A DNA stretch of 32,000 nt from Acaryochloris marina MBIC11017 (GTDB lineage Bacteria > Cyanobacteriota > Cyanobacteriia > Thermosynechococcales > Thermosynechococcaceae), in contig NC_009926.1 of the NCBI RefSeq assembly GCF_000018105.1, positions 342,162 through 374,161 on the forward strand, written 5' to 3'. Below are positions 6,907 through 30,857 of this stretch, piece after piece. The notes beneath the pieces were generated by a model. It worked only from the letters and a program-made list of their open reading frames with translations, ran no database searches and was not told the DNA's origin. The first letter of the stretch is position 1; each line of letters begins with the position of its first letter. The position numbers and the translations under genes are program-made.

Positions 6907-9651
6907 ATGAACCCCAAAACACCTTCGCTTTCCCTCCGTTGGGTTCTCATCATTCCATTCGTTGTGCAAATTTTTGCTGCCGTGGGAGTGGTCGGTTATT
7001 TTTCATACCGTAGCGGGCAGCGAGCGGTAGAAGATGTGGTGAATCAGCTCCAAAATGAGATTAGCGATCGCATTACCGAACGCCTCGATACATATTTACG
7101 CACGCCGAGCCTTGTGGCTGACAATTTGTCACTAGCCATCCAAACTCGAGAACTGGATATCAACCAAATCAATCGAGATTGGGAGCTTTATCTTTGGCGA
7201 CATATTAATCTATACGACAACGTTAAAGGCGTTTATGTTGCCACCGAAGATTTGCAATACAGGCACATCATTTCTCAGGAAGAAGGGCTGGTGATGGAGC
7301 TCTTCTCTTTAGAGGATCAGTTCCTCCGTTATTATTTAGTCGATCCCAAGGGCAGTGTTACCGATGAACTCATAGAAGTTCTGGAAAAAGAGTTCAAGCC
7401 ACGCTCTCGTCCTTGGTACACGGCCCCCAAGCAGGCTGGTAAAGCGACATGGACCCCGATTTTTATTTGGGTTCAAGGGGATACGATGAGCGTCGATTTT
7501 GCAACCCCGGTTTATGGTCCATCGCAACAATTCGAAGGGGTGGTGGGAACCAGCTTTTCATTGTCGAATATCAGTGATTATCTTGCCACACTTAAAATTG
7601 CTGAATCTGGTGAGGCATTTATCCTCGAACGCTCTGGCGCAGTCGTCGCCACCTCCACTGGAGAAAAACCCCATGGGATCGATCTCGACAGTCAAACAGT
7701 TGCGCGATTAAATGCCATAGATAGTCAAAATACTCTGATGCGCCAAACGACTCAATATCTCTTCGATCGCTTTGGCAGCTTAGAGATTATCAACTCCCTC
7801 ACTCAAGATCGCTATAAAATTGAGGGTCGCCAATATTTCTTAAAGGTTGAATCTTATCGTGACAATTTAGGTTTAGATTGGCTGATTGCCATTGTCATCC
7901 CTGAATCGGATTTTATGGCCCAAATCTACGCCAACATTCGCACGACCCTGGCCCTTTGCCTGGGGGCATTGGGCATTGCTACCTTTTTGGGCATCCTTAC
8001 CTCTCGTTGGATTTTGCAGCCGATTTTACGCTTACAAACCGCCTCCAACAGCTTGGCGGCTGGGCAACTGGACCAAGCCATTGAGGTTAAAGGCATCCAT
8101 GAACTCTCTAGTCTCGGCAGCGCTTTCAACAGCATGGCGAGACAATTGCAAGAATCGTTTCAAGCCTTAGAAGACAACAATGCAAAGTTGGATCAACGGG
8201 TGCAACAACGAACCGCCGAGCTGAAAGTCGCAAAAGAAAAAGCCGAAGTGGCGAACCAGGCCAAAAGTCTGTTTATTGCCAATATGAGCCACGAACTGCG
8301 CACCCCCCTCAATGGCATTTTGGGCTATGCCCAGGTGTTGGAGCGATCGCCCACTATCTCCGATAAAGCGCAGCAGCAAGTCCACATCATCCATAAGTGT
8401 GGCACCCATTTGTTGGGCATGATTAACGACATTTTGGACCTGTCTAAGATTGAAGCGGGCAAACTCGACCTGATGCCCAAACCCGTCCATCTGACCTCCT
8501 GCTTACAGGGGGTTGCCGAAGCCTGCCGGGTGCGGGCCGCCCAAAAGGGACTGGAGTTTGTCTATGCCGTTGACCCAGGGTTGCCCGAGGGGGTGGAACT
8601 GGATGAACAACGGCTGCGACAGGTGCTGTTCAACCTGTTGAGCAATGCCATTAAATTCACCCAGCAGGGCACCGTGACCTTGCAGGTGTCGGTCGCTGAG
8701 GTAACCCGATCCGATTATCGGCGACTGCGTTTTGGGGTAACCGATACCGGCGTGGGCATTGCCCCAGCCCATCTGGATCAGCTATTTAATGCCTTTGTGC
8801 AAGTGGGCGATCGCCAAAAGCAAGCTGAAGGCACCGGGCTCGGCCTCGCTATCAGCCGCCGACTTGTGCAATTGATGGGCTCACAGATTGAAGTGCAAAG
8901 CGCAGTGGGACAAGGCAGCCAATTTAGCTTTGAACTCGAAGTGCCATTGGCTACCGAATGGGAGCTATCTCCCAGTACCCTACAGAACCACGCTATTATT
9001 GGCTATGCCGGTGAACGGCGGCGTGTGTTGGTGGTGGATGACCGCTGGGACAACCGCAGTGTTTTGGTCAGTCTCTTGCAGCCCATTGGCTTTGAAATCG
9101 TGGAAGCGGAGGAGGGGCAGAAGGCCCTGGCTGTGCTCCAACAGCAGCCCTTTCATCTCATGATTACTGATTTGGCTATGCCCGTGATGGATGGGTTTGA
9201 GTTGCTCCGGCAGGTACAACAGTTGCCCATACGCCCCCCCAAAATGATTGTGTCTTCGGCCTATGTTTCTAAGCAGGAACAGGAACTGGCGATGGCCGCA
9301 GGGGCAGATGCGCTGCTGCCAAAGCCCGTTGATGCGGCCAAGCTGTTTGAGCTTTTGGCGCGTGAGCTAGGGTTGGAGTGGCAATATGTGGGGAATGAGG
9401 CCCCTCAGGACATTACCTCTGCACCCGCAGCGGCAATTACCCTGCCGTCCCGAGAGCGGTTGCGATCAATGTATGACGCGGCGGATGCGGGGGACTTTCG
9501 CATGGTTCGCCGACAGTTGGAGCAGCTGATGGCGACGAACCCAGAGTATGAGGGGTTTGTAAGGCCGCTGCTAGCGTTGGCGAAGAAGCTGAAGACGGAT
9601 GAGATTAAGGGGATGCTGGCGCAGTATGTCGATGATGAAGCGTCGGGATAA
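6907..9651 (+). CDS. hybrid sensor histidine kinase (TM, extracytoplasmic sensor domain, HAMP, HisKA, HATPase, receiver, C-terminal helical tail)
   Basis: Two TM segments flank a ~300-aa Cache-like region. HAMP is at ILQPILRLQ...FNSMARQL. H-box [17 protein letters not shown] boxes [23 protein letters not shown]. Receiver [11 protein letters not shown]...[11 protein letters not shown]...PKP. Confidence 0.9.
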
Positions 9652-14550: not shown

Positions 14551-15909
14551 TAGCTAGGAGAGTGTTTAGATTTTTGTGTAAGCAGCAGTGTATTCAATAG
14601 TTGAATCGTGTTGGGAACAGAATAGCAAAATGGGACAGCGCCGCTTTCCAATTCAGAATTGGTCTGGTCCATCGCTTCGAAATATTCCTCATCGCTAGAA
14701 ACATCAATTTGTAGACAGACTCTTCATTAGGGAAAACCGCTTTGGTCTTAATCACCTTTCTCAGTGAGCGGTTGAGCGACTCAATGGCATTGGTGGTGTA
14801 GATAACCTTACGGATGGCCATTGGGTATTGAAACAACGGGGCAACATTATCCCAATGTCGTATCCAGATTTGGCTAATGCCAGGATACGTCTCGTCCCAT
14901 TTATGGGCAAATGCATCCAACGCAGCCTCAGACTCTTCCAAAGTGGCCGCTTGGTAAATGGGCTTGAGGTCTGCAGCTACGGCTCGACTTTCCTTCCACG
15001 GCACATGGCGAAGGCTATTACGAATAAGATGGACAATACAAACCTGCACCTGGGTCTGAGGGTAGACCGACTCAATCGCTTGAGGAAAACCTTTGAGTCC
15101 ATCACAGCAAGCAATCAAGATATCCTGAGTTCCTCGATTTTTAAGGTCTGTGAGCACCGAAAGCCAGAATTTTGCTCCCTCTCGTTCAGCGGCTCCTATC
15201 CATAATCCCAACAGTTCCTTGTTGCCCTCCACAGTCACTGCCAAAGCGACATAGACAGCTCGCTTGCTGACTTGACCATTGACTTTGATGTTCACATACA
15301 GCGCATCAAGATAGACAATCGGATACACCTCATCCAGCGGCCTTGAACGCCAGTCTTTGACCTCTTCCATGACGCTATTGGTGACGTCACTAATCAGAGC
15401 TTCAGAGATATTGGCCCCATACAGCTCCACCAATTGGGCTCGAATATCACGGGTGGTCATGCCCCGAGCATATAAGGCGATGATTTTCTCATCGAGCCCT
15501 GCGATGCGTCGCTGGCCTTTAGGCACCAGGACAGGCTCAAACTCGCCGCAACGGTCACGAGGAATCGATAGGTCCATCTCTCCTTGTTCAGACTGGACGG
15601 TCTTTTTCGAGTAACCATTGCGACTATTTCTGGGGCCATTAGAATTCTCATCACCTGACTGATCGTTGGAGGATTGCTGCAGGTGATGAGTCAATTCACC
15701 TGCAAGGGCTCGTTCCACTAGGCGTTTGCTGAGTCGTTTAAGCAGTCCTGATTCGCCCAGAATATCTTCCGGTTGAGGGTTCTCTCCGATGAGTTCATCT
15801 AACAGTTCATCGACTCGATTGGGAGCTTTTTTCTTTCTAGACATCGTACGGTCTCCTGATGTGTTTGGATCCTAGACCGCTTACACAAAACTCTGAACAG
15901 TCCCTAGCT
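14551..15909 (-). mobile_element. IS256-family insertion sequence (~1.35 kb)
   Basis: Single transposase ORF bounded by imperfect terminal inverted repeats: GAGAGTGTTTAGATTTTTGTGTAAGC (14558-14583) versus the reverse complement of 15878-15903, GGGACTGTTCAGAGTTTTGTGTAAGC. Both ends are flanked by TAGCTAG (14551-14557 and 15904-15910). Confidence 0.85.
14594..15844 (-). CDS. IS256/Mutator-family transposase
   Basis: 416-aa ORF with the family pattern ...VYPIVYLDALYVNIKVNG...VYVALAVTVEGNKELLGLWIG..EGAKFWLSVLTDLKNRG..DILIACCDGLKGFPQAI..VYP.TQVQVCIVHLIRNSL... Confidence 0.9.
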   Translation of the reverse strand: MSRKKKAPNRVDELLDELIGENPQPEDILGESGLLKRLSKRLVERALAGELTHHLQQSSNDQSGDENSNGPRNSRNGYSKKTVQSEQGEMDLSIPRDRCGEFEPVLVPKGQRRIAGLDEKIIALYARGMTTRDIRAQLVELYGANISEALISDVTNSVMEEVKDWRSRPLDEVYPIVYLDALYVNIKVNGQVSKRAVYVALAVTVEGNKELLGLWIGAAEREGAKFWLSVLTDLKNRGTQDILIACCDGLKGFPQAIESVYPQTQVQVCIVHLIRNSLRHVPWKESRAVAADLKPIYQAATLEESEAALDAFAHKWDETYPGISQIWIRHWDNVAPLFQYPMAIRKVIYTTNAIESLNRSLRKVIKTKAVFPNEESVYKLMFLAMRNISKRWTRPILNWKAALSHFAILFPTRFNY

Positions 15910-18519: not shown

Positions 18520-18957
18520 TTAGTCATCCTCCTTCAACCCTGCATAGATACTTATTGCAGGGCTATCAGAATCTACCGCCGGGGGTTCCTCTTCTTCTCT
18601 TGGAGGTTCATAAGGCTCAGGGGGCGGCTGTACAGTCTCAGGTTCTACGACCATTGGGGCGGCTGTGGATGGAGCTGGTGAGGGTGGCGTCAATTCAGGA
18701 GAATCCCCATCAGCAGTAACCATAATCAATGCCAGTTCGTAAAACGTCTCAACCTGATCTCTTGAAATCAGGATGGCCTTGCGAACCTCAGCTACGGAAT
18801 TGGTTCGAAGGGCAACAACCACTGGCTTAAAGACGGCATAGAGAATCGTCACGCACTTAGTCGCAAACGTTCCGTAGAAGTGTTGCTTGGATGCTTGCAA
18901 GATTTCCTTATACTCTGCATTAGGGTATACAGCATCTACTTTTAATCGCTCAGGCAT
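18520..18957 (-). CDS. candidate ParR-like partition adaptor (145 aa)
   Basis: The start overlaps the ParM-like stop (TAATG) and has an AAGGAGG RBS. It has a short structured N-terminal half and a Pro/Glu-rich disordered tail (PPSPAPSTAAPMVVEPETVQPPPEPYEPPREEEEPP). The assignment rests on position and architecture only. Confidence 0.4.
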   Translation of the reverse strand: MPERLKVDAVYPNAEYKEILQASKQHFYGTFATKCVTILYAVFKPVVVALRTNSVAEVRKAILISRDQVETFYELALIMVTADGDSPELTPPSPAPSTAAPMVVEPETVQPPPEPYEPPREEEEPPAVDSDSPAISIYAGLKEDD

Positions 18958-20051
18958 TACACAACCTCCTTAACTGGAGCAGGTTGCAGTTGCATCACAG
19001 GGGCTGCATGTTGTCGCCAAATCAGATATAGATCGATAAATCTCTGCTGCTGAGACAACGACAATCGAAGTTGAGCAAATGTTGTCTTGATTTCCCTGCG
19101 AACCGGAGCGAGGATATCAGCCTTGACCTGGCATAAATCAGCCAAATAGTCTCCCCAGAAAAAGGAGCCTCCCCCGCCGACATACACACGCTTAGAATTC
19201 ATGAAGTCGGTATCCGCTGCCAAGTCATCACTCAGGTCAGTCCAAACTAAATCTTTGGCTTCTTTGAGTGCAGCTAGCTTAATCGGCTTCTCCTCTTCAG
19301 TGAGCATTGCCGATAATCCCCCTTCGCCCCAGGCCATCGCCTCCTCATACAGCAGCTTCGCCCCCGTCAATTCATTGCTGAAGGCAAACGGGAAGTTCCG
19401 CAAAATCTCAATGGTGCCGTACCCCGTCCAGGTATAAGCATTCGGCACCACATTCGCCTGCTCATCCTTGAGGTTGATAATCGTCACATCTCTGTGACCA
19501 AACATCAGGATTGAACAGGGGTACACGTTGGCGTAGCTGGCAAATCCTGCACCCTCTGGATGGACCTGGACCCGAACGGGATTACATGAAACTGTGTCAA
19601 TCCCATACTGGAAACTGCGGATATGCTTGAAAATCAGCTCCTCAGTTTCTCGGAAGTAGGGGGCTTCATTTGAAGGCAGCATCAGATCAATCTCAACATC
19701 CAGGGGGCTATCGATTTCGCTGATGTACTGACCCACAATCGACAGCACCTTAGCCACGGCATGGTGCTTTTTGATCCGATTCACCTTGGTCCGACGTACA
19801 GCCCCCTCGGCATACTCACCCACAATCCAATGGGCACCATCAAATGACAGGTGTGACCCTTGCCGATTGTTCACTAAGTTCAAAGATTCGTAATAGCTTG
19901 CCGTGACTTTGCGGATGGCACTCGATTGCAAAATCAAGTCCTCAACACCCACCTTGCCAGGGTGAGTGGTTTGGACAAGAACTTTGTTACCGGATGCCCC
20001 AGTATCGATTCCAAATTTGGCGATAGCGTTCATGGATTTTCGCTTCTCCAT
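18957..20051 (-). CDS. actin-like plasmid segregation ATPase (ParM/Alp family)
   Basis: Actin-fold motifs: phosphate-1 FGIDTGASGNKV, connect VHPEGAG, adenosine VYVGGGGSFFW. The phosphate-2 region is atypical (ILMFGHRDVTI). Start at ATG 20051, or at ATG 20033 with GGAG 12 nt upstream. The 20138 start in the ORF track reads through the iterons. Confidence 0.7.
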   Translation of the reverse strand: MEKRKSMNAIAKFGIDTGASGNKVLVQTTHPGKVGVEDLILQSSAIRKVTASYYESLNLVNNRQGSHLSFDGAHWIVGEYAEGAVRRTKVNRIKKHHAVAKVLSIVGQYISEIDSPLDVEIDLMLPSNEAPYFRETEELIFKHIRSFQYGIDTVSCNPVRVQVHPEGAGFASYANVYPCSILMFGHRDVTIINLKDEQANVVPNAYTWTGYGTIEILRNFPFAFSNELTGAKLLYEEAMAWGEGGLSAMLTEEEKPIKLAALKEAKDLVWTDLSDDLAADTDFMNSKRVYVGGGGSFFWGDYLADLCQVKADILAPVRREIKTTFAQLRLSLSQQQRFIDLYLIWRQHAAPVMQLQPAPVKEVV

Positions 20052-20060
20052 AATCAACGA

Positions 20061-20074
20061 AATAATGTACCGCC
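20061..20074 (-). promoter_or_regulatory. backbone box copy (AATAATGTACCGCC on +) directly upstream of the ParM-like gene
   Basis: 9 nt from ATG 20051 and 27 nt from ATG 20033. Read in the gene direction it is GGCGGTACATTATT, which contains the -10-like TACATT. Confidence 0.5.
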
Positions 20075-20095
20075 ACCCCAAATCACGATTCACAC

Positions 20096-20171
20096 AAATC
20101 CCCCTAAATCCCCACAAATCCCCTTGCAACTCCCCCAAATCCCCCTCGAAATAGGTGAGACTTGGGGGAAT
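20096..20171 (-). repeat. phased AAATCCCC(C) iterons, candidate parC-like centromere/operator
   Basis: Direct copies start at 20096, 20106, 20116 and 20137 (spacing 10, 10 and 21 bp). An inverted copy GGGGGAAT lies at 20164-20171. All are upstream of the ParM-like gene. Confidence 0.55.
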
Positions 20172-20328
20172 CCAGAGAATGACCTGAGAACTTGCAGGAA
20201 AGCTTGGAGTGGTGCTACTTTGAGGGCAGATTCAAGAGGTTTTGGAGGGGTCGCTGAGGCTCCCACACCCATCACCACTCCGAGGCACCGGAACGGAAAT
20301 TTACCCAATCGGACTGACCCTAAATTTT

Positions 20329-20427
20329 CGTAGTACATTCAGAAACATTTTTGTACTATCACGTAGTACTTCCGTAGTTGTTTTGTAACTTCACTTTGTA
20401 GTACACCGTCATATCTTTGTAGTTTTC
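20329..20427. other. candidate oriT region: AT-rich block with repeated (T)TTGTAGTAC / CGTAGTAC motifs
   Basis: CGTAGTACA 20329-20337, TTGTACTA 20351-20358 (inverted), CGTAGTACT 20362-20370, CGTAGTTG 20373-20380, TTGTAGTACA 20396-20405 and TTTGTAGTTTTC 20416-20427. The block lies in the divergent intergenic region immediately upstream of the relaxase gene. Confidence 0.35.
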
Positions 20428-20543: not shown

Positions 20544-23500
20544 ATGAAGACGATGCGGACCATCTATGGAGAAATGATTGACTATTACGATGAGGATGAA
20601 TCTCTCGTAGATGCTCCAGAGCGCTATTACAGCGAATCCGAGGTTATCACTGACATCGACCGCATGAGTACCGCTGTCTGGGTCGGCTCCAACGCGATTG
20701 TTCAAAAGTTAGGCACCTACGTTAAACGAGAGGACTTCAAAGCCCTCAGTCGAGGGTTTCTACCTGAAGCCTTAAAAAGTGTCGCGGGTGGTGCAGTCCA
20801 ACGGATTCGGGGCAAGAAACCCAACGAGGAAGACAAAGAACGCCATGCCCATGACGTGGTGCTGTCTGCTCCCAAAAGTGTGTCGATGGCCCTGCACTTG
20901 GAAGGGGATAACCGGATCTTTGATGCCCACATGGAGGCAGTCCTCGAAACGTTTGAGTTGCTTGAACGGGAGTATGCCCAGACCCGAATTCAAGTGAATG
21001 GGGTGCGCTCTGTCGTCGATACGGGCAATATGATTGCGGCGTTGATGCCCCATCACACTTCACGAGATGGAGATATGCAGCTCCACACCCATATGCTGAT
21101 CATGAATGGCACACAGGGGCCAGATGGTCGGTGGCGATCCCTCTCTCATGAAAAGCTGGCTCAGGCCAAGTGGATCGGCAGCTTCTATCGTCAGAAGTTA
21201 GCTGAGAAGGTCCAGCGACTGGGCTATCGCATCTACCAAACCAAGGATGCATTTGAGCTAGTGGGCTACGACCGTTCTGATGTCGAAGTCTTCAGCAAGC
21301 GTCATCGGGCCATCGTCAAAGCGGTTCGGGATGAAGGGCTAGAAGTTACTCCTGAGAACAAGAAGCTGAAGGTACTCCCCACTCGCAAGGCTAAGCGGGG
21401 TGTCGGTAAAAAGCTTGAAATCATCCAAGACCATTGGCGTGAAGAAGCCCGCTCTCAAGGGGTGGGCCATCCAGTATTGGCTGAACCTTTGGCCGTCCTA
21501 CCTGACCCAGGTAGAGCCAGGTATGAAGTTGAGAGTGCTATTCGCCATTATGCAGAGTGGTCCTCAATCTTTGAGAAGGATGACATCTATGCCTATGTCT
21601 TCAAGACCCTCAAGCGACAGGGCATGGCTATGGAACAGGTGGATGAGGCCATCAAGCAAAGCAAGGAACTGATCCCCGTTGACCGTGGATTCACCACCGT
21701 CACTGCCGTTGAAGAAGAAGCCCAGATCCATCAGCGCTGGATGGCAGGCCAAGGTCAAGCTCAGCCAATGGTCGCTCATCCTTCACTTGCTGGGATTTCG
21801 GTCAAGCTGAACGAAGACCAGGCCAAGACCATACTCAACACCCTCACTAGCACTGACCATTATCAAATCTGGCAAGGCTTTCCAGGGGTGGGCAAGTCCA
21901 GAACCTTGGGGGTACTCAAGACTTTACTCAATGGATCCGGTTTCACGATTCGGGGGTTCAGCCCTACCATCCCAGCCGCAAAGAAGCTCCAAGATGAGCT
22001 AGGCATCACGACCAACACCGTTGAGCATCTAGTTCTCCATCAAGTTGATGATAGCCCTAACCAAGTCTGGCTGATTGATGAAGCGGGCATGATGAGCCGA
22101 CGACAGATGAAGGTGATTCTGGAAAAGGCAGAGGCAGTCAAGGCACAAGTCATCTTCGTAGGGGATGCGGGCCAGAACTCTTCAATTGAAGCGGGCAATC
22201 CCTTCAAGTTTATGCAGGCCAATGGAGCCACCACTCACCGAATTGAGGAGATTATCAGGCAAAAAGTTGATGTCCAAAAGCAGGCCGTTGAACTGATTGC
22301 CAGAGGTAGAGGAATTGCAGCACTAGAACTCCTTGATGCTAATGGATATGTGATTGAGTCGGGCTGTAAAGCGGAAATGGCTCAAGCCGCAGCAGATCAG
22401 TACCTCGCTCTCCCCCTCAAAGAACAAGAGGAAACCCTGATTATCGCTGGTACCAATGAGGAACGACTCGATACGGAGCAAGCCATTCGTAGAGGGGAGA
22501 AACAAGCAGGACGGCTAGGGGAATCCAGCAAGATTGTTCAGCTCAAGTCCCGCAACTTGAGTATCGAGCAAAAGCGTCGGGTGGATTGGTATCGCAAAGG
22601 GGATTACGTCCGATTACTTCAAACCTCCCATACCGCATCCATCAAGCGAGGAGAACTCTACAAGGTGGAAAAACGCGAAGGGGATGAGCTGGTGGTATCT
22701 TCCTTTGGCGGTCGCCTCTATCGATTCAAACCCGCGAAATACAAACTAAAGGAGGTCTACAGTGCCCATAAATTTGATGTGGCCGTTGGGGACAAGTTGC
22801 GGTGGACGACAACGATCAAAGAAAACAACTGGATTAACGGTCAGCAGCTCACGGTCACCGCCCTTGATGGCTTGAACATGAAAGTCAGAGACCATGAGGG
22901 ACGTTCCCATGATGTGCCCCTCACGCAACCGCTTGCCTTGGAATATGACCGGGTGTGGACTTCCTACCGCTCCCAGAGTGGCAGCAAGAAACGGACGATT
23001 GTCATCACCACCAATGACCGGACCTCCAGCCGGGAGCCGTTCCTCGTCGATATTTCTCGGCAAGAACATGAATTGACTGTCTATACCGAGAGCCTGAACA
23101 AACTCAGGAATCGGGTCGCCAAATCCAATGCCCAAAAAAGTGCTTTAGATCTAATCGAGGGAACCTATGGAAACCAACGAACAACAACAGCAGATCATCA
23201 ACGAGCTTCGAGTCCAGTTAGCCCCACTCACGGACGCGATCACCATCTTGACCAATCAAGTCGAAGAGGTCCAAGCCCAGAACCAACACATCCTAGACGA
23301 GAACAGAGAACTCAAGTCCCAAGTCAGGGAGCGGATCAACACCATTCCAATGGAAGTCAAAGCCGTTCTCAACCTGTTCATCCAGGAATTCAAGGAGGCG
23401 ATGGCATCCAAGAAACCCTCGGATATGAGCGAGTCGATCAAGGAACTCGCCAAGGCAATGGACAACTTAAGGTTGAAAATCGAGGATACCAGCGTCTTGC

Positions 23501-26249
23501 AGTTGACGATGAGCGACAAGGTATTGGAGGCCGCAGAGGAGATCATGCAGATCAAGGACAAGCTCCCCCGACACGCACCACCCAAGACGGTCGCTCAACA
23601 GAATGGGGGGCAACCTCCTCAGACATAGCTAATTGGGTGATGCATTGGTCTGAGGAGAATGAGCTTGCAGCAAGCGGGTTGGAGGATCACTTGCTAGCCC
23701 TTGATAAGGATATAGAGTCACTCACTCAAAGTCTAGAACCATATTCCTTTGAAGGTTTGGAAGAACTGGCTGAGATTGTTGAAAATGCAGATAAACAACA
23801 AGATCTCAGCCAGAACCTCACTTATATTGCCCAAACTATAGATAACTTTAACCAGATAATCACCCAAAGTCTTGATTCTAGACCTTTTATAGGCTTGGAA
23901 GAATTGGCTGAGATTGTTGAAAATGCAGATAAACAACAAGAACTCAGCCAAAACCTTAGTTATATTTCCCGATCTATAGATAACTTTGACTACACTATCG
24001 AGCAATTCCTAAGCCAGCAACGAATCAAGACCATTGCTGATGCCGTAGCAGAATGGCGAACGGGTCAGGAGCTGGCAAATGCCGTCACTGAAATGGTGGA
24101 TGTCCTGACTCAGGGCACTGAAGGGCTAGACCGGGCAATCATCCGACTCCAAGCGGGGATTGAGACCACCCAATCTCTGGATGTCCAATTCCCCGCAATG
24201 GTTGAGTTAGTCGATGCCGTTCAAGATTGGCAAACTGAGGTGGAAGTTTCTGCGGTCATAGGCGAGGTGCAGGAGCTGGTTGAGTCAATCACGGTGCCTC
24301 AATTCCCTGGAATGAATGACCTGGCTCAGGATGTCCATGACCTCAATGAAGAACAAGCCTTAGCTGAGAGTGGCTTGGTTGAGCAGTTAGCTGAGTTGAC
24401 CACTCAGATCAATACCTTAGTTGAACCCCAGCAAGCTCAGTTTGAGGGCATGGCACAGCTAGCTGAGGTGGTTACTGAACTCCAGCAAGGTCAATCCCTC
24501 GCTCAGGTGCAGCCCCAGCTCCAGGCCATCACCCAGCAGATTGAAGCGTTTAACGCCAAGCAACCCACTTATTCTTTTGCCAAGATTAAGGAGCTGGCCG
24601 ATACCGTCAGTGAGTGGAGGGCACATGAATCCATCACTCAACACATTGGCGCACTCAATGATCTGACCGTTCGCGCTCAACGGAGTCTGAAGACCTTCCC
24701 AGCTATGCTGCAATTGGCTAAATCCGTGAAGGCAATGCGCTCTGTGGATGCACTCATGAATGGGCCAGTCGCAGACCAGATCAAGGAAGTCGCCCAACAG
24801 TTAACGGACAAGGGGATGAGTATCACTCCTAAGCCAAAGACCATTGACGATCAGGTGTTCTGGAAGCCGGACTATACCGGGGTAGAACGACCTGACCACA
24901 TTGACGAGAAGCATTGGAATGAATGGGTGGCAAGCTGCGCCCATCCTGATGTGATTGCTGCTCGGCTCCAATCCATTGCTGATGATCAGGTGATTGATCG
25001 GTTGCTCGGAGCCAAGATTGAAGACATCGCCACTCGCAGACGGGATGGGTCGTTCAAGACGGTTCGCAGCCAGTATCACATTGAGCCGATCCGAGCCTTG
25101 ATTAATGATCGGTCGCATCCTGAAGTGTTGAGCTATCAAGAGCTAGCTGAAGGGGGAGGCTGGTGGGCTGATGCTGGAGTGGATCCGCTGTCCTTTGAAG
25201 AACTTGGACCCAATGAGGAACCTACACTGAGTCTGTATGGCACCTTCAAGCCTGATACTCCCCGCATCGACGTAGACAAAACTCGCAGAGCTAGGGCTAA
25301 AGACTCCAATGCCCCAACCAAATATCGCAAGTATGAGAATCCATTGGGAACCAAGCGCGAACTCTTTGAGCGAGACATGGCCTTCCAACCCGTCCCAAAT
25401 CATATCGCTGAGCGGATCTTTGATAAGTATGGTGTTGTGCAAACGGATGAGGAACGGACCAAGGGATTCTGGTACACGGTCTACAAGCATCCTGAGATTC
25501 CCATCTACCGGACTGAAGGAGACAAGAAAGATGCGGCATTAGTCTCTCAAGGAAGAGTCGTCATTGGTGGTCAGGGGGTCAACATCGGCTATCGGGCCAA
25601 GAACCAGCACGATGAAAAGCTCGAAAGACGAGTACTGCATCCTCATCTAGACGTGTTTGCGGTTCCAGGCAGAGAGTTCAGGTATGCCCATGACTGGGAT
25701 TCTGAGCAGTCCACGGTCTGGAACGTGCGCCGTGAAATGGTCAGAGAAGCTGAACTCATTGAAGAAAGAGACTGCAAGACATGGAGAATTCCTTGGGATT
25801 CTGAACAAGGGAAAGGCGTCGATGACCTGATCGCTAATCATGGCCCCATCGCCTTTGAGCGGGCTGACAAGAATGCCTATCCGATGGAGCGGGAAATCAC
25901 GATGCACTATCGGGGCCAGTACACCCAGATTAAGAAGCGATTGAATCGGCACTTTGGATGCGCGGTGCACGATATTCCCATTTACCTAGAAGCGATGAAG
26001 GATGGGGACGAGATGGATGGCATTCGGGTCCTATGGGAGTCTTCCACTGCCCGGTCCTTCCAGCATTACCATGACAAGCAGCACTATATCGAGGGCATCA
26101 TCAAGCTCTCGGATGCCTATCGTAGACTCGTCAGAAAAGACGGTGACCCCAAGGCCATGCAAATCCTCGTCAACAGACTAAAAAGGCCCCGACCCATTAT
26201 CAAGGTCGAGGCCAGAAGTCGGAATATAAAACGAGGCTATGGACGTTAG
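20544..26249 (+). CDS. MOBF-type relaxase / RecD-like helicase fused through a repeat-rich linker to a C-terminal TOPRIM (primase-like, DUF3854-like) domain
   Basis: Relaxase: Tyr pairs IDYY...ERYY and His triad HHTSRDGDMQLHTHMLIMN. Helicase: P-loop GFPGVGKS (21876-21899), Walker B LIDEAGMM (22071-22094) and VGDAGQ. TOPRIM: TEGDKKDAA (from 25512), HDWDSE (25689-25706) and KGVDDL. A single frame is open for 1901 codons. Confidence 0.85.
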   Translation: MKTMRTIYGEMIDYYDEDESLVDAPERYYSESEVITDIDRMSTAVWVGSNAIVQKLGTYVKREDFKALSRGFLPEALKSVAGGAVQRIRGKKPNEEDKERHAHDVVLSAPKSVSMALHLEGDNRIFDAHMEAVLETFELLEREYAQTRIQVNGVRSVVDTGNMIAALMPHHTSRDGDMQLHTHMLIMNGTQGPDGRWRSLSHEKLAQAKWIGSFYRQKLAEKVQRLGYRIYQTKDAFELVGYDRSDVEVFSKRHRAIVKAVRDEGLEVTPENKKLKVLPTRKAKRGVGKKLEIIQDHWREEARSQGVGHPVLAEPLAVLPDPGRARYEVESAIRHYAEWSSIFEKDDIYAYVFKTLKRQGMAMEQVDEAIKQSKELIPVDRGFTTVTAVEEEAQIHQRWMAGQGQAQPMVAHPSLAGISVKLNEDQAKTILNTLTSTDHYQIWQGFPGVGKSRTLGVLKTLLNGSGFTIRGFSPTIPAAKKLQDELGITTNTVEHLVLHQVDDSPNQVWLIDEAGMMSRRQMKVILEKAEAVKAQVIFVGDAGQNSSIEAGNPFKFMQANGATTHRIEEIIRQKVDVQKQAVELIARGRGIAALELLDANGYVIESGCKAEMAQAAADQYLALPLKEQEETLIIAGTNEERLDTEQAIRRGEKQAGRLGESSKIVQLKSRNLSIEQKRRVDWYRKGDYVRLLQTSHTASIKRGELYKVEKREGDELVVSSFGGRLYRFKPAKYKLKEVYSAHKFDVAVGDKLRWTTTIKENNWINGQQLTVTALDGLNMKVRDHEGRSHDVPLTQPLALEYDRVWTSYRSQSGSKKRTIVITTNDRTSSREPFLVDISRQEHELTVYTESLNKLRNRVAKSNAQKSALDLIEGTYGNQRTTTADHQRASSPVSPTHGRDHHLDQSSRRGPSPEPTHPRREQRTQVPSQGADQHHSNGSQSRSQPVHPGIQGGDGIQETLGYERVDQGTRQGNGQLKVENRGYQRLAVDDERQGIGGRRGDHADQGQAPPTRTTQDGRSTEWGATSSDIANWVMHWSEENELAASGLEDHLLALDKDIESLTQSLEPYSFEGLEELAEIVENADKQQDLSQNLTYIAQTIDNFNQIITQSLDSRPFIGLEELAEIVENADKQQELSQNLSYISRSIDNFDYTIEQFLSQQRIKTIADAVAEWRTGQELANAVTEMVDVLTQGTEGLDRAIIRLQAGIETTQSLDVQFPAMVELVDAVQDWQTEVEVSAVIGEVQELVESITVPQFPGMNDLAQDVHDLNEEQALAESGLVEQLAELTTQINTLVEPQQAQFEGMAQLAEVVTELQQGQSLAQVQPQLQAITQQIEAFNAKQPTYSFAKIKELADTVSEWRAHESITQHIGALNDLTVRAQRSLKTFPAMLQLAKSVKAMRSVDALMNGPVADQIKEVAQQLTDKGMSITPKPKTIDDQVFWKPDYTGVERPDHIDEKHWNEWVASCAHPDVIAARLQSIADDQVIDRLLGAKIEDIATRRRDGSFKTVRSQYHIEPIRALINDRSHPEVLSYQELAEGGGWWADAGVDPLSFEELGPNEEPTLSLYGTFKPDTPRIDVDKTRRARAKDSNAPTKYRKYENPLGTKRELFERDMAFQPVPNHIAERIFDKYGVVQTDEERTKGFWYTVYKHPEIPIYRTEGDKKDAALVSQGRVVIGGQGVNIGYRAKNQHDEKLERRVLHPHLDVFAVPGREFRYAHDWDSEQSTVWNVRREMVREAELIEERDCKTWRIPWDSEQGKGVDDLIANHGPIAFERADKNAYPMEREITMHYRGQYTQIKKRLNRHFGCAVHDIPIYLEAMKDGDEMDGIRVLWESSTARSFQHYHDKQHYIEGIIKLSDAYRRLVRKDGDPKAMQILVNRLKRPRPIIKVEARSRNIKRGYGR
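23167..23628 (+). CDS. 153-aa coiled-coil protein encoded in the +1 frame inside the relaxase ORF
   Basis: GAGG at 23157-23160 lies 6 nt before the ATG, and an in-frame TAA lies at 23152-23154. Coding-type codon-position bias is in this frame rather than frame 0. The product is an amphipathic helical sequence. Confidence 0.55.
   Translation: METNEQQQQIINELRVQLAPLTDAITILTNQVEEVQAQNQHILDENRELKSQVRERINTIPMEVKAVLNLFIQEFKEAMASKKPSDMSESIKELAKAMDNLRLKIEDTSVLQLTMSDKVLEAAEEIMQIKDKLPRHAPPKTVAQQNGGQPPQT
23754..24029 (+). repeat. 138-bp (46-codon) tandem duplication inside the relaxase linker
   Basis: 23754-23891 and 23892-24029 are near-identical over the first ~70 nt (gg.ttggaagaa.tggctgagattgttgaaaatgcagataaacaacaaga.ctcagcca.aacct). 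They encode GLEELAEIVENADKQQ.LSQNL.YI...IDNF twice. Further degenerate copies follow. Confidence 0.8.
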
Positions 26250-28778: not shown

Positions 28779-29133
28779 ACCGTCCAAACCCCCGATTTTG
28801 GCCTCGGTTCCGATTCTGGGTGAGCTTGTGGCCGTGGGTTTCCACCGCGACTTTGAGTTGGGCACTCTTCACATACCGCTCCGCCATCTTGGTTGGGTCT
28901 TGCACTTTCTCGGCATAGTCGCTCATCCGTAGCTTGGTCTTAATCACATCCGTGGGGGTGTTATTCCGTATCTCCTTCTTCGCCAGTTCCATTGCCTGTT
29001 CAGCAGTCTCGATCTTGACCGCCACTCGCGGCTTGCGGAGGGCGACGGCATTGATGATGACGCTGTTGGTGGCATTCACGGCCTGCTGGCCGATTTGCAA
29101 CGCTTCTCTAAATTGCTGTTCTTCGCTACTCAT
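28777..29133 (-). CDS. small hypothetical protein (118 aa) with a basic RG-rich tail
   Basis: The ATG overlaps the coupling-protein stop (ATGA). Helical body and the tail NRNRGQNRGFGR. No family recognised. Confidence 0.6.
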   Translation of the reverse strand: MSSEEQQFREALQIGQQAVNATNSVIINAVALRKPRVAVKIETAEQAMELAKKEIRNNTPTDVIKTKLRMSDYAEKVQDPTKMAERYVKSAQLKVAVETHGHKLTQNRNRGQNRGFGR

Positions 29134-30857
29134 GCGGCTTTCTCCTCTTGTTGCTTCAATTTGTGGGATTCAACTTCTTGGGTAGAGGGCAGCAAGGCAT
29201 CCGCAGACACCATGCGGTCGGACATGATTTGTTCTGGAGAATCTAACACCCGCTCTTGGGCTATCCGCACCATCTGCTTATGGACATGGCTGTTGTACAT
29301 CCGCTCACATTCGGTGAACCGCTGCATGTCCGTGCCATTCCGCTTCTTCAAGTTGAAGCGCATCCGAATGGGCCGATCATCCATGCCGGGGTTGGTGCAG
29401 ATAAATTCCCCTTTCTTCAATCGCTTGATATCTGAAGCGGTAATCAGCCGCTTCTTCTTCTCCTGTTCATTGCGGGAGCGGCTGTTGCCCATCTTCCCGT
29501 AGCTGCGAGATTTGGAATGGTAGTGCTTGGTGTACTCCCCCAAGTCCGCACTCAGGTCTTCTCGGACTTTGTAGCTCCCACTCTTGAATATGAATTGGGT
29601 GGAGGTGTTATCAAAGATGGACTCTGAGGTCTCCGACTGATATTTAATCTTGGGTTGGCTATAGCTCTGCATGGACACAAAGGAATAGAACCCATAGCTC
29701 CGATCCAAGGACACCACTTCTTCAAAACTCGGCAGCATCAGTCGGGCGAATTCATCTAGGAACACACCAAAAGGCCGATCCCGTTCCGTATCCTCATTCA
29801 AGTTGCGCTGAATTAAAAGGTGAATGGCAACAGCGACTAATGGGGCCGTAGCTTTCTTGGCTTGTCCATCCAACTCAAAGAAGATGATTTGCTTACCCGG
29901 TAGGTCCAAAGGAATGGTGGATTGGGTGGGTTCGCGCCCATCAATGGACAGACAGGGGATGGTCTGCCGATTGACCATTGGTAAGAGATAGTTGATGCCA
30001 CTCGCTAATATGCCGCCAGCGGTATCTTGGGTGCCCGTCACGCTCATCAGGCCCACGAGCTGTTGCCTCACCCACATGCCTAAATCGCTATCTACCTTGA
30101 ATGCGCCTTCTTGATCGGCCATTTGAATCCGCTCTGCGATACCCGGCAGGCCCATCAAAGCCCATACCATCGGCAAGTCGGAATAGTCGGCCCGCTTCGC
30201 CATCATCAACAGGGCTTGCAGGAAGTACTCCGCATGATTGTCGAAGAAGGGATGCTTGCCTGAAAGATTGACGATCACGTTATCGGACAAGGTTGAGGCG
30301 ATGGACCGCGCTCTCAATGAGTCATCAGCATCTTGCATAAATTTTAGGTAGTCAAAGCCATGACTGTATCGCTTGCCGGGGGCAAAGCAGTAGCACTCAT
30401 ATGGATCTGGTTGCTTGAGGGCAAAGGGGATGAATTTCTTCTTGAGAGTACCCTTCACATCAAAGACAATCAGGGTGTGCTCCTGGCGTATAGCATCTGC
30501 CAAGGCTAGTTCAATCACCGTAGCGGTCTTACCCTTACCAGACCCACCCACGATGGTGACGAGGGGCTGAAGGTCCGGGAGGATCAGGGGGTCATCGCTG
30601 CCCAGGCGAAGGGCAATTTCATCCCGTTTTCGGTCTCTGATTTGCTTGAGTCCCAGCATCTTAGCTCGATGCTGCTCCCGTCTCGTGGCCCACCGGGCAT
30701 CATCGGGTTCGCGTCTCGTCTCATCCTCAAACCACCACAGGGCAATTACGATCAGGGCCAATAAACCCGTCAACCAGGGGAGAGGGCCACTGAAAAGTGG
30801 GGACAGGTCAACCCCTTCAGATTGGGGTTGAGGAGGCTGTTCGGTATGCTGCGACAT
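29130..30857 (-). CDS. type IV coupling protein (VirD4/TraG/TrwB family ATPase)
   Basis: AAGGAGG RBS. N-terminal TM LPWLTGLLALIVIALWWF. Walker A GGSGKGKT. Walker B-like FGVFLDEFARL. Size and layout are typical of T4CPs. Confidence 0.9.
   Translation of the reverse strand: MSQHTEQPPQPQSEGVDLSPLFSGPLPWLTGLLALIVIALWWFEDETRREPDDARWATRREQHRAKMLGLKQIRDRKRDEIALRLGSDDPLILPDLQPLVTIVGGSGKGKTATVIELALADAIRQEHTLIVFDVKGTLKKKFIPFALKQPDPYECYCFAPGKRYSHGFDYLKFMQDADDSLRARSIASTLSDNVIVNLSGKHPFFDNHAEYFLQALLMMAKRADYSDLPMVWALMGLPGIAERIQMADQEGAFKVDSDLGMWVRQQLVGLMSVTGTQDTAGGILASGINYLLPMVNRQTIPCLSIDGREPTQSTIPLDLPGKQIIFFELDGQAKKATAPLVAVAIHLLIQRNLNEDTERDRPFGVFLDEFARLMLPSFEEVVSLDRSYGFYSFVSMQSYSQPKIKYQSETSESIFDNTSTQFIFKSGSYKVREDLSADLGEYTKHYHSKSRSYGKMGNSRSRNEQEKKKRLITASDIKRLKKGEFICTNPGMDDRPIRMRFNLKKRNGTDMQRFTECERMYNSHVHKQMVRIAQERVLDSPEQIMSDRMVSADALLPSTQEVESHKLKQQEEKAA

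Follow-up and report, generated by a model that had tools for sequence, protein, structure and literature searches.

Can one stretch of a plasmid relaxase gene be read in two frames, with both readings maintained? The question is raised by mobF, a gene in the window, by which we mean the whole 32,000-nucleotide stretch of DNA analysed here, from a plasmid of Acaryochloris marina MBIC11017. MobF is 100% identical to a plasmid protein of that strain (P0003), whose annotated start is later. The original prediction had described a complete ORF in the +1 frame of this gene and had offered three readings: an overprinted gene on a relaxase linker, a three-gene operon whose first stop codon was lost, and compensating frameshifts or sequencing errors. 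The positions that it gave for the long ORF, the +1 ORF, the stops, the GAGG and the ATG all agree with the sequence. The relevant features are the following.

20544..26249, plus strand: host gene mobF, frame 0, 1901 codons, encoding relaxase, helicase, linker, helical repeats and DUF3854 (from the ORF list, its translation and Pfam)
20577..21452, plus strand: TrwC relaxase domain, aa 12-303 (Pfam PF08751, E 4.6e-63)
21804..22358, plus strand: AAA_30 helicase domain, aa 421-605 (Pfam PF13604, E 2.9e-50)
23146..23154, plus strand: two +1-frame stops just upstream of the nested start, TAG 23146-23148 and TAA 23152-23154
23157..23160, plus strand: GAGG resembling a Shine-Dalgarno sequence, 6 nt upstream of the nested start, inside frame-0 codons ...L-I-E-G...
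23166..23639, plus strand: frame-0 linker over the same DNA, 158 aa rich in G/Q/R/S/T/D/P/H and strongly hydrophilic (GRAVY -1.51)
23167..23628, plus strand: nested +1-frame ORF wholly inside mobF, 153 codons from ATG 23167 plus TAG (23626-23628)
23640..23642, plus strand: frame-0 ATG, Met1033 of MobF, 11 nt after the +1 TAG
23643..25466, plus strand: helical-repeat arm (aa about 1033-1640) that connects the nested-gene linker to DUF3854, seen in the frame-0 translation, e.g., as the duplicated ...GLEELAEIVENADKQQ.LSQNL...
25467..25847, plus strand: DUF3854 domain (Toprim-like), aa 1642-1768 (Pfam PF12965, E 3.1e-41)

Because TrwC (PF08751) and AAA_30 are both present, the host relaxase is of the MOBF type, which is also the type returned by MOB-suite. 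A T4CP gene is located nearby at 29130-30857. The helicase module extends to about aa 875, whereas AAA_30 itself ends at aa 605. DUF3854 is Toprim-related by description and occurs in CyRepA1 and CyRepA2, which are Rep proteins of cyanobacterial plasmids (PMC10079941); a PDB search with the C-terminal DUF3854 part of MobF returned no relatives. In its TrwC, AAA_30 and C-terminal DUF3854 domains the host resembles the MobF of pCC7120gamma, but it differs from this and other shorter members of the family (e.g., that of pAQ6) in being longer and in carrying the nested ORF on its linker. The shorter MobF-DUF3854 proteins (1249-1499 aa; pCC7120gamma, pAQ6 and another Acaryochloris clade) have a short linker with no detectable nested ORF, which counts against the reading that we favour, namely that bases 23167-23628 are very probably read in two frames, both of them maintained, as a genuine case of overprinting.

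The main support for this reading comes from the way in which the two frames have diverged. We calculated dN/dS by the Nei-Gojobori method (NG86) for both frames over the same alignment columns, in nine Acaryochloris loci and then in an independent set of ten loci from other cyanobacteria. Across the Acaryochloris loci, values were 0.11-0.56 in the +1 frame versus 0.9-7 in frame 0, and across the other cyanobacteria they were 0.10-0.52 versus 0.8-9.9; standard dN/dS is biased in overlapping genes, so that these figures carry no meaning in absolute terms, but the two frames differ strongly. The phase of the substitutions agrees. Outside positions 23200-23650, variable columns fall mostly at frame-0 position 3 (e.g., 22 of 30, versus 6 and 3 at the others), whereas inside this interval they fall mostly at frame-0 position 1, which is the wobble position of the +1 frame (e.g., 16 versus 5 and 3), and ordinary frame-0 wobble variation returns after about 23650. 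Two checks proposed with the original prediction, namely in which frame the changes in homologous loci are synonymous and whether frame 0 has a stop near 23160 there, thus have their answers: dN/dS and substitution phase both single out the +1 frame, and frame 0 is free of stops throughout. At the amino-acid level, the +1 product is kept down to 14-37% identity while the DNA diverges, with retention of the helical pattern and of the motifs TxP..VK..LN.FI, QKSDKM, LEDSS and AAEEI. On these comparisons, the predicted +1 protein is under purifying selection.

A different kind of selection acts on frame 0 in this stretch. We held the +1 protein fixed and redrew its synonymous codons according to the codon usage of the window (5000 draws), which at this locus yields about 12 expected frame-0 stops against none observed, with frame 0 open in 0 of the 5000 draws. 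When 15 loci were resampled, 6-13.5 frame-0 stops were expected per locus and none was observed in any (P(open) <= 0.0008); frame 0 being open in every locus despite this expectation, its openness is actively selected and not accidental. The avoidance is visible codon by codon: a T at the +1 third position before AA, AG or GA codons occurs 0 times in 51 at this locus and 0 of 46-55 times in each of the nine Acaryochloris loci. The shortage of T-ending codons reported in the original prediction (10 of the first 152 +1 codons, about 7%, versus 27.6% in the other genes of the window) is confirmed by our count. However, +1 third-position T is also scarce where no frame-0 stop would arise (8-16% versus 27.6%), and selection for frame-0 openness alone does not explain the depletion at these sites. 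By codon log-likelihood, the +1 frame is favoured over about 23100-23400; the signal is ambiguous up to about 23520 and later favours frame 0. Taken at the level of codons and substitutions, the frame-0 linker is selected to stay open and not for its sequence, and its hydrophilic character is probably under selection as well.

The start of the nested ORF is similarly conserved. In 16 of the 18 loci in which the open stretch was inspected, the +1 frame opens 2-7 codons ahead of the ATG, the exceptions being L010 and L019, where it is open 23 and 22 codons before it, respectively. All 18 loci with inspected upstream sequence carry a Shine-Dalgarno-like GAGG, GGAG, AGGA or GGA within about 11 nt upstream of the conserved ATG. 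The start region is unstructured, its fold being weaker than that of 193 of 200 shuffled sequences (z = +1.66), and no conserved RNA structure was found there (only 4 pairs, -2.95 kcal/mol). A search for an internal promoter or terminator found neither, and an Rfam search of the region returned no match. An intron or RNA element was considered and set aside on the lack of an Rfam match, and an intron is further disfavoured because frame-0 openness is selected. We also considered whether ribosomes slip into the +1 frame at the A6 run (23134-23139) and so make a truncated relaxase, and rejected this because the run is not conserved. From the start context, we infer that translation of the small protein starts internally and independently.

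The predicted nested product is an all-helical protein of 17.4 kDa with a pI of 5.0 and a disordered P/Q/G tail. Its AF2 model (mean pLDDT 69) places helices at residues 2-57, 62-81, 84-107 and 117-132; its predicted N-terminus is Met-Glu-Thr-Asn, and its predicted sequence contains the peptides INTIPMEVK, AVLNLFIQEFK, ELAKAMDNLR and VLEAAEEIMQIK. In Foldseek, no PDB entry matched the model at E below 0.8, a PDB sequence-profile search returned designed coiled coils only, and 16 family members scanned with Pfam and NCBIfam gave inconsistent coiled-coil noise and no consistent Mob match. The minus strand carries an ORF of its own at 23256-23585 (109 aa), the kind of shadow ORF expected opposite such a stop-poor region.

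Every locus in which we found a homolog of the small gene (25 of 25, from several cyanobacterial groups) carries it as an intact ORF in the +1 frame of a relaxase ORF. The eight other Acaryochloris mobF loci (L001-L008) share the intact ORF and the same start context, including L006, where the amino-acid identity is only 26-32%. Four loci at 37-56% identity (L009-L012) and an IS-disrupted relaxase homolog (L016) were picked by relaxase similarity alone, and in all of these a homologous +1 ORF directly follows the helicase. The loci recovered by searching with the small protein are likewise all nested in the +1 frame of a long ORF and include MAGs of Chroococcidiopsidaceae, Chlorogloea CCALA 695 and metagenome contigs; in the contig scans, the Acaryochloris alignment recovered nothing, the 16-sequence alignment was too divergent for a pattern search, and a narrower alignment recovered loci. 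Two Nostoc plasmids also nest the small ORF, and in the Nostoc relatives the nested module lies downstream of DUF3854 rather than upstream; on one Nostoc plasmid (L031), mobF and a DUF3854 protein are annotated as separate genes, with the small ORF in the +1 frame inside the DUF3854 gene. The assemblies behind the 25 loci are independent, comprising complete plasmids of four strains, one draft genome, MAGs and metagenomes. One metagenome fragment (P0078) joins frame 0 to the +1 product and could hint at a fusion form.

Outside this arrangement, the family was not encountered. Searches of 5.8 billion clusters and of 1.84 billion representatives turned up the small gene nowhere on its own, a profile search of the latter yielding 13 small matches, and the exact nested products do not occur in a set of about 15 billion proteins. 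The family HMM matched no in-frame copy in about 70 relaxase homologs; an in-frame coiled coil in distant homologs was considered and dropped, BLAST giving only weak matches (E 0.001-0.1) and the family HMM none. The nested gene is annotated in no database and, across the loci compared, is ancient and always nested. The reading of an overprinted gene on the relaxase linker is thereby upheld on four points, namely purifying selection on the +1 frame, a frame 0 kept open, a conserved Shine-Dalgarno and ATG context, and nesting in 25 of 25 loci.

Could the two frames instead be joined by programmed frameshifting? Ribosomes on mobF would then slip to +1 near 23155-23170, and the product would be a relaxase-helicase/coiled-coil fusion ending at TAG 23626, with a mass of some 118 kDa (relaxase-helicase of about 875 aa, then the 153-aa segment), rather than a free 153-aa protein. 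Shine-Dalgarno-like elements are able to stimulate frameshifting, and one lies immediately upstream; the window also has the A6 run, and P0078 goes from the helicase end into the +1 product. However, the +1 stops at 23146 and 23152 separate the A-run from the ORF, so that a slip at the run would terminate immediately; the run is replaced by CAAGAAA in the other four aligned loci; and the +1 frame opens so shortly before the conserved ATG in most loci that few codons are left for slippage, in which no slippery motif is shared across the loci compared. The P0078 junction lies mid-ORF and not at the ORF start, which fits an indel or sequencing error, and we consider frameshifting very unlikely. 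A constraint on the nucleic acid itself, be it an RNA fold or a DNA site of the ssi or oriT-like kind, would conserve the +1 frame and leave the open frame as a side effect. Cis-acting DNA sites are frequent in relaxase genes and their surroundings. Nevertheless, variable sites recur with a period of three bases in phase with the +1 frame, helices and motifs are kept at amino-acid identities at which the DNA has diverged, and there is neither an Rfam match nor a conserved fold, all of which makes this explanation extremely improbable.

If the locus were an operon of relaxase-helicase, small coiled-coil and DUF3854 genes that had lost its first stop, the read-through would be accidental and the products separate, the third starting from ATG 23640. 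The spacing is cistron-like (a stop, a Shine-Dalgarno sequence and an ATG, then a stop, 11 nt and an ATG), codon usage is more typical in the +1 frame, and L031 has mobF and the DUF3854 protein annotated apart. Against this, frame 0 is open in every locus where several stops would be expected, no stand-alone small gene appears in either collection searched, and the small ORF is still in the +1 frame within the DUF3854 gene of the split Nostoc locus. Moreover, the DUF3854-bearing relaxase homologs at 30-56% identity are, among the matches listed, single TrwC+AAA_30+DUF3854 polypeptides, as are the relatives at 37-56% identity; the lost-stop operon of the original prediction is not supported, and we consider it very unlikely. 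The putative third start fares no better: Met at 23640 is kept in seven of the nine Acaryochloris loci, being missing in L005 and L006, and no frame-0 Met just after the +1 stop is present in these two or in L009, L010, L011 and L012. The suggestion of a separate, RepB'-like C-terminal Toprim-like product from this codon is not supported by these six loci, and by this comparison ATG 23640 is an ordinary internal Met and no conserved restart codon. Termination-reinitiation at this ATG was also rejected on the missing Met. The locus might also be an artefact, in which indel pairs introduced by sequencing or assembly, or a frameshift compensated recently, displaced a normally in-frame coiled coil. 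Two compensating indels would give a shift out of frame and back again about 460 nt later, and the CCMEE 5410 entry P0002 does show a local frame mix. Yet 25 loci, assembled independently and from different organisms, share the two-frame layout, no relaxase homolog yields an in-frame copy to the family HMM, and selection on the +1 frame extends over dS > 1; this part of the original prediction is rejected, and the chance of an artefact is next to negligible.

In the most probable mechanism of dual coding, ribosomes starting at the mobF ATG (20544) would pass through 23167-23628 in frame 0 and produce a hydrophilic, low-complexity tether connecting the TrwC/AAA_30 half of MobF to its helical-repeat and DUF3854 half. 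Other ribosomes would start internally on the same mRNA strand, at GAGG (23157-23160) and ATG 23167, in the +1 frame, yielding a separate acidic helical protein of 153 aa whose amino-acid sequence selection preserves. Nesting would ensure that the small protein is inherited and expressed together with its cognate relaxase.

Known systems offer partial parallels. MobA of RSF1010 is a MOBQ relaxase, and the overlap in its gene is located in the inter-domain region. In this plasmid (R1162, IncQ), mobB lies wholly inside the mobA/repB relaxase gene in a different frame, and the host protein has a relaxase at its N-terminus and a primase-type domain at its C-terminus (PMC2200642). The small ORF of mobF is likewise out of frame in a relaxase gene, between AAA_30 and the Toprim-related DUF3854. 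In contrast to RSF1010, the Acaryochloris host is a MOBF relaxase with TrwC and a helicase rather than a MOBQ enzyme, Nostoc relatives have the nested module after the Toprim-like domain, and the C-terminal domain of MobF has no conserved internal in-frame start, so that mobF has no equivalent of RepB'. ColE1-type plasmids carry mobB/mbeB and mobD/mbeD wholly within mobA/mbeA in another frame, with MbeB counted among the relaxosome components (PMC5935869). As with mbeB and mbeD, the accessory ORF of mobF sits entirely within the relaxase ORF; however, the ColE1-type plasmids are small enterobacterial mobilizable plasmids with another relaxase family and no detected homology, whereas in cyanobacteria the plasmids measure 180-390 kb and the overlap falls on a disordered tether in a protein about 1900 aa long. 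In Pfam and NCBIfam scans, the nested product shows no detectable similarity to any known Mob family. The nesting is convergent with that of mobB in mobA (RSF1010, ColE1) and evolved independently.

In classic overprinting, one frame is structured and selected while the other is hydrophilic and of low complexity, and the codon choice of one is constrained by the other. The mobF overlap follows viral overprinted genes in pairing a structured, selected +1 protein with a hydrophilic, low-complexity frame 0, but it differs from these in lying on a bacterial plasmid, in spanning 462 nt and in being conserved across several cyanobacterial groups. One preprint reports a link of overlapping genes with intrinsic disorder (bioRxiv 10.1101/229690).

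The parallels with MobB of RSF1010 and MbeB/MobB of ColE1-type plasmids lead us to suggest tentatively that the small protein may act with its own relaxase, as a subunit of the relaxosome or as a relaxase-associated accessory subunit, a role to which we give somewhat less than an even chance. A more far-reaching proposal, which we consider unlikely, is that the family is ancient and exists only as an overprint, never alone or in frame, and travels within the MobF proteins of large cyanobacterial plasmids as a module (disordered tether, nested gene and helical-repeat arm) that is permuted relative to the Toprim-like domain in Nostoc. The product might then bind the adjacent helical arm of the relaxase that encodes it and, as a cognate subunit for specificity or assembly, might keep apart the transfer and replication machineries of the many paralogous plasmids that share an Acaryochloris cell.

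Whether bacteria have long overlapping genes on one strand is disputed, and standard gene callers do not permit them. With its clean evolutionary signature in 25 loci, this 462-nt overlap provides a bacterial test case for overlap detection methods and for the proposal that disordered linkers tolerate overprinting. Either product could be knocked out separately by point mutations that are silent in the other frame. To our knowledge, the conjugation machinery of large cyanobacterial plasmids has barely been studied, and the nested gene adds to their relaxase locus a conserved, never-annotated and likely missing component of conjugation.

The mobF relaxase gene of this Acaryochloris marina MBIC11017 plasmid encloses, one base out of phase, an ORF that, judged from its sequence, is a real, conserved and unannotated gene with a putative role as a relaxase partner. 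The product of the 1901-codon frame 0 is 100% identical to the protein entry P0003 (A. marina MBIC11017 plasmid, 374,161 bp), and its DUF3854 domain is Toprim-related by description and is shared with CyRepA1 and CyRepA2, two replication proteins of cyanobacterial plasmids (PMC10079941).

10035-12917, + strand: RTX calcium-binding repeat protein
14594-15844, - strand: Mutator-family transposase
18957-20138, - strand: ParM/ALP-like partition protein
19926-20333, + strand: 135-codon ORF with a TTG start, upstream of mobF
20544-26249, + strand: mobF ORF, 1901 codons
aa 12-303 of the mobF product: TrwC relaxase domain
aa 421-605 of the mobF product: AAA_30 helicase domain
aa 1642-1768 of the mobF product: DUF3854 domain
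TAG 23146 and TAA 23152, + strand: +1-frame stops closing the frame just upstream of the nested ATG
23157-23160, + strand: GAGG, six bases ahead of the nested ATG
ATG 23167 to TAG 23626-23628, + strand: nested ORF, 153 codons, one base out of phase inside mobF
23640, + strand: frame-0 ATG
29130-30857, - strand: TraG/TrwB-type coupling protein (type IV coupling protein)

In the other Acaryochloris loci L001-L008, the annotation places small hypothetical genes (61-140 aa) with no Pfam match immediately ahead of mobF; their equivalent in the window is the 135-codon TTG-start ORF (19926-20333, +), and this small gene is a candidate for a conventional relaxosome accessory protein.

The composition described in the original prediction is confirmed, with T-ending codons at ~7% in the +1 frame versus 27.6% in the window's other genes. 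A codon log-likelihood trained on the window's other long ORFs prefers the +1 frame at ~23100-23400 and frame 0 to either side of that interval. In frame 0, the motif that ends the helicase (...SNAQ.N..ELIGE...) contains the GGAG/GAGG ahead of the nested ATG. The initiation region is free of stable structure (z = +1.66), and the SD-ATG unit within it is conserved. We infer that translation starts independently at 23167.

The +1 ORF is kept, with the same start context and an open frame 0, in 8/8 further Acaryochloris mobF loci (five on complete plasmids of three strains, one in a draft genome and two in public-read assemblies), and this holds even in L006 (pREC2, strain MBIC10699), where its product is just 26-32% identical. 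Across the nine Acaryochloris loci, dN/dS is 0.11-0.56 in the +1 frame versus 0.9-7 in frame 0 over the same columns; across ten loci of other cyanobacteria, the corresponding ranges are 0.10-0.52 and 0.8-9.9. When the nucleotide sequences of eight loci are aligned, the variable columns lie at the third frame-0 codon position as far as ~23110, move to frame-0 position 1, the +1 wobble position, over ~23200-23650, and return to position 3 past ~23650. Together, the dN/dS contrast and the switch in substitution phase indicate that, within the overlap, selection on amino-acid sequence acts on the +1 frame.

Frame 0 is also kept open. When each +1 protein was fixed and its synonymous codons were redrawn according to codon usage in the window or gene concerned (5000 draws), 6-13.5 frame-0 stops were expected per locus and none was observed in 15/15 loci tested; no more than 4/5000 draws left frame 0 open at any locus, and for most loci none did (0/5000). 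Such a stop requires T at the +1 third position followed by a codon starting AA, AG or GA, a combination used at 0 of 46-55 opportunities per locus in the nine Acaryochloris loci. T at this position is lowered at harmless sites too (8-16%), and frame 0 may also avoid T-initial codons (Phe, Leu, Ser, Tyr, Cys, Trp), keeping the tether hydrophilic. The frame-0 product over the overlap (158 aa; G/Q/R/S/T/D/P/H-rich; GRAVY -1.51) has no visible conservation among distant loci. At the level of sequence comparison, the two frames are shown to be maintained, each by a different kind of selection. Just past the overlap (23700-24000), the frame-0 protein carries a near-exact duplication (...GLEELAEIVENADKQQDLSQNLTYI... 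/ ...GLEELAEIVENADKQQELSQNLSYI...), the start of a helical-repeat arm of ~600 aa whose length differs among paralogs.

The +1 product (17.4 kDa, pI 5.0) is modeled by AlphaFold2 as four helices (2-57, 62-81, 84-107, 117-132) with a disordered tail (mean pLDDT 69), and has no family, solved-structure or fold match above coiled-coil noise. Its conserved motifs include R-E-R-[IL]-N-T-[IL]-P-x-x-V-K-x-x-L-N-x-F-I, QK[SP]xxM, LEDSS and AAEEI. The N-terminal coiled coil is variable, with lineage-specific tandem repeat expansions at four loci:

L023, 740-1327
L025, 324-812
L005, 4124-4573
L007, 3285-3782

The units are NNQQQ in Acaryochloris and of the type NLT[RQ]S[IM]E[EK][LV]KAQNTEALQENA in two metagenome loci; every expansion has to remain stop-free in both frames.

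Directly after the helicase module, a homologous +1 ORF is present in every relaxase homolog picked solely by relaxase similarity, namely four cyanobacterial loci from metagenomes (37-56% identity) and one copy interrupted by an IS. In the interrupted copy (L016 6001-12006, metagenome contig Ga0573903_015), an IS1-type insertion separates the helicase part (1180 aa) from the DUF3854 part (449 aa), and the nested ORF survives at 8585-8962. A search of two collections for the nested protein added nine loci, among them Chlorogloea sp. CCALA 695 and MAGs of Chroococcidiopsidaceae, and in each of these a long ORF encloses the copy in its +1 frame. The family HMM found no in-frame copy among ~70 relaxase homologs, and nothing in relaxases without DUF3854 (L014, L015, L033) or in shorter MobF-DUF3854 proteins (1249-1499 aa), including those of pCC7120gamma, pAQ6 and the other Acaryochloris clade. 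Two Nostoc plasmid loci hold homologs in the +1 frame of the host:

L029 6647-6997, Nostoc sp. UHCC 0926 pn2, HMM E 1e-10
L031 6727-7092, Nostoc sp. UHCC 0302, HMM E 8e-8

In both, third-position T is ~7% in the nested ORF versus 28% in the host gene, and 0 frame-0 stops are observed versus ~10 expected. Their homolog lies past DUF3854 rather than between helicase and DUF3854; therefore, the order of the Toprim-like domain and the module (tether, nested gene, helical arm) seems permuted.

Four annotated Acaryochloris plasmid records examined for this mobF clade have no feature for the nested ORF, and a collection of ~15 billion proteins contains no exact match to the +1 products from six loci. 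Among 5.8 billion clusters, a word-indexed search returned 3 matches; among 1.84 billion representatives, a full HMMER profile search returned 13, all small. Three of the small matches come from contigs 574-1203 bp long, which truncate the long ORF. In the 263-aa metagenome protein P0078, the C-terminus of the helicase, read in frame 0 (...LELIGEHYDNQQ...), is joined to the +1 product (...MRKQMDTIPLTVKQ...) by a one-base shift in mid-overlap; this protein may represent a natural fusion variant, a pseudogene or a sequencing error. The sole NCBI-named relative, P0002 (91 aa, 'hypothetical protein', Acaryochloris sp. CCMEE 5410), has a METNE start, followed by a stretch resembling frame 0 (…SVPHGRDHHPDQS…) and lastly by the +1 product, and is a frame-mixed fragment that probably arose from indels in a draft assembly.

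The original prediction had left open an overprinted gene, an operon whose first stop was lost, and compensating frameshifts or sequencing errors. Error as the source of the two-frame layout is excluded by its recurrence in independent assemblies. Descent from separate genes is contradicted, since the openness of frame 0 is selected and a stand-alone copy was never found in either the 5.8 billion clusters or the 1.84 billion representatives. Nor did a separate C-terminal product from ATG 23640 hold up, as this Met is present in just 7/9 Acaryochloris loci. A fusion made by ribosomes shifting from frame 0 into the +1 frame is unlikely, given the +1 stops ahead of the nested ATG and the absence of a conserved slippery motif, and a nucleic-acid constraint in place of a protein is excluded by codon-phased variation, by conservation at the amino-acid level and by the lack of an Rfam match or conserved fold. 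The overprinted gene is the reading that the +1-frame dN/dS, the substitution phase, the openness of frame 0 and the nesting of the homolog in 25/25 loci holding one uphold.

The +1 product may act as a partner of its own relaxase, given the analogy with mobB of RSF1010, which lies inside mobA/repB (PMC2200642), and with mobB and mobD of ColE1-like plasmids, which lie inside mobA (PMC5935869), and given its strict physical linkage to the tether and helical-arm module. The nested arrangement is the same as in these IncQ and ColE1 mobilization genes, whereas the cyanobacterial host relaxases are MOBF. The nested gene is a new, convergent instance of the IncQ/ColE1-type arrangement, in cyanobacterial MOBF relaxases.
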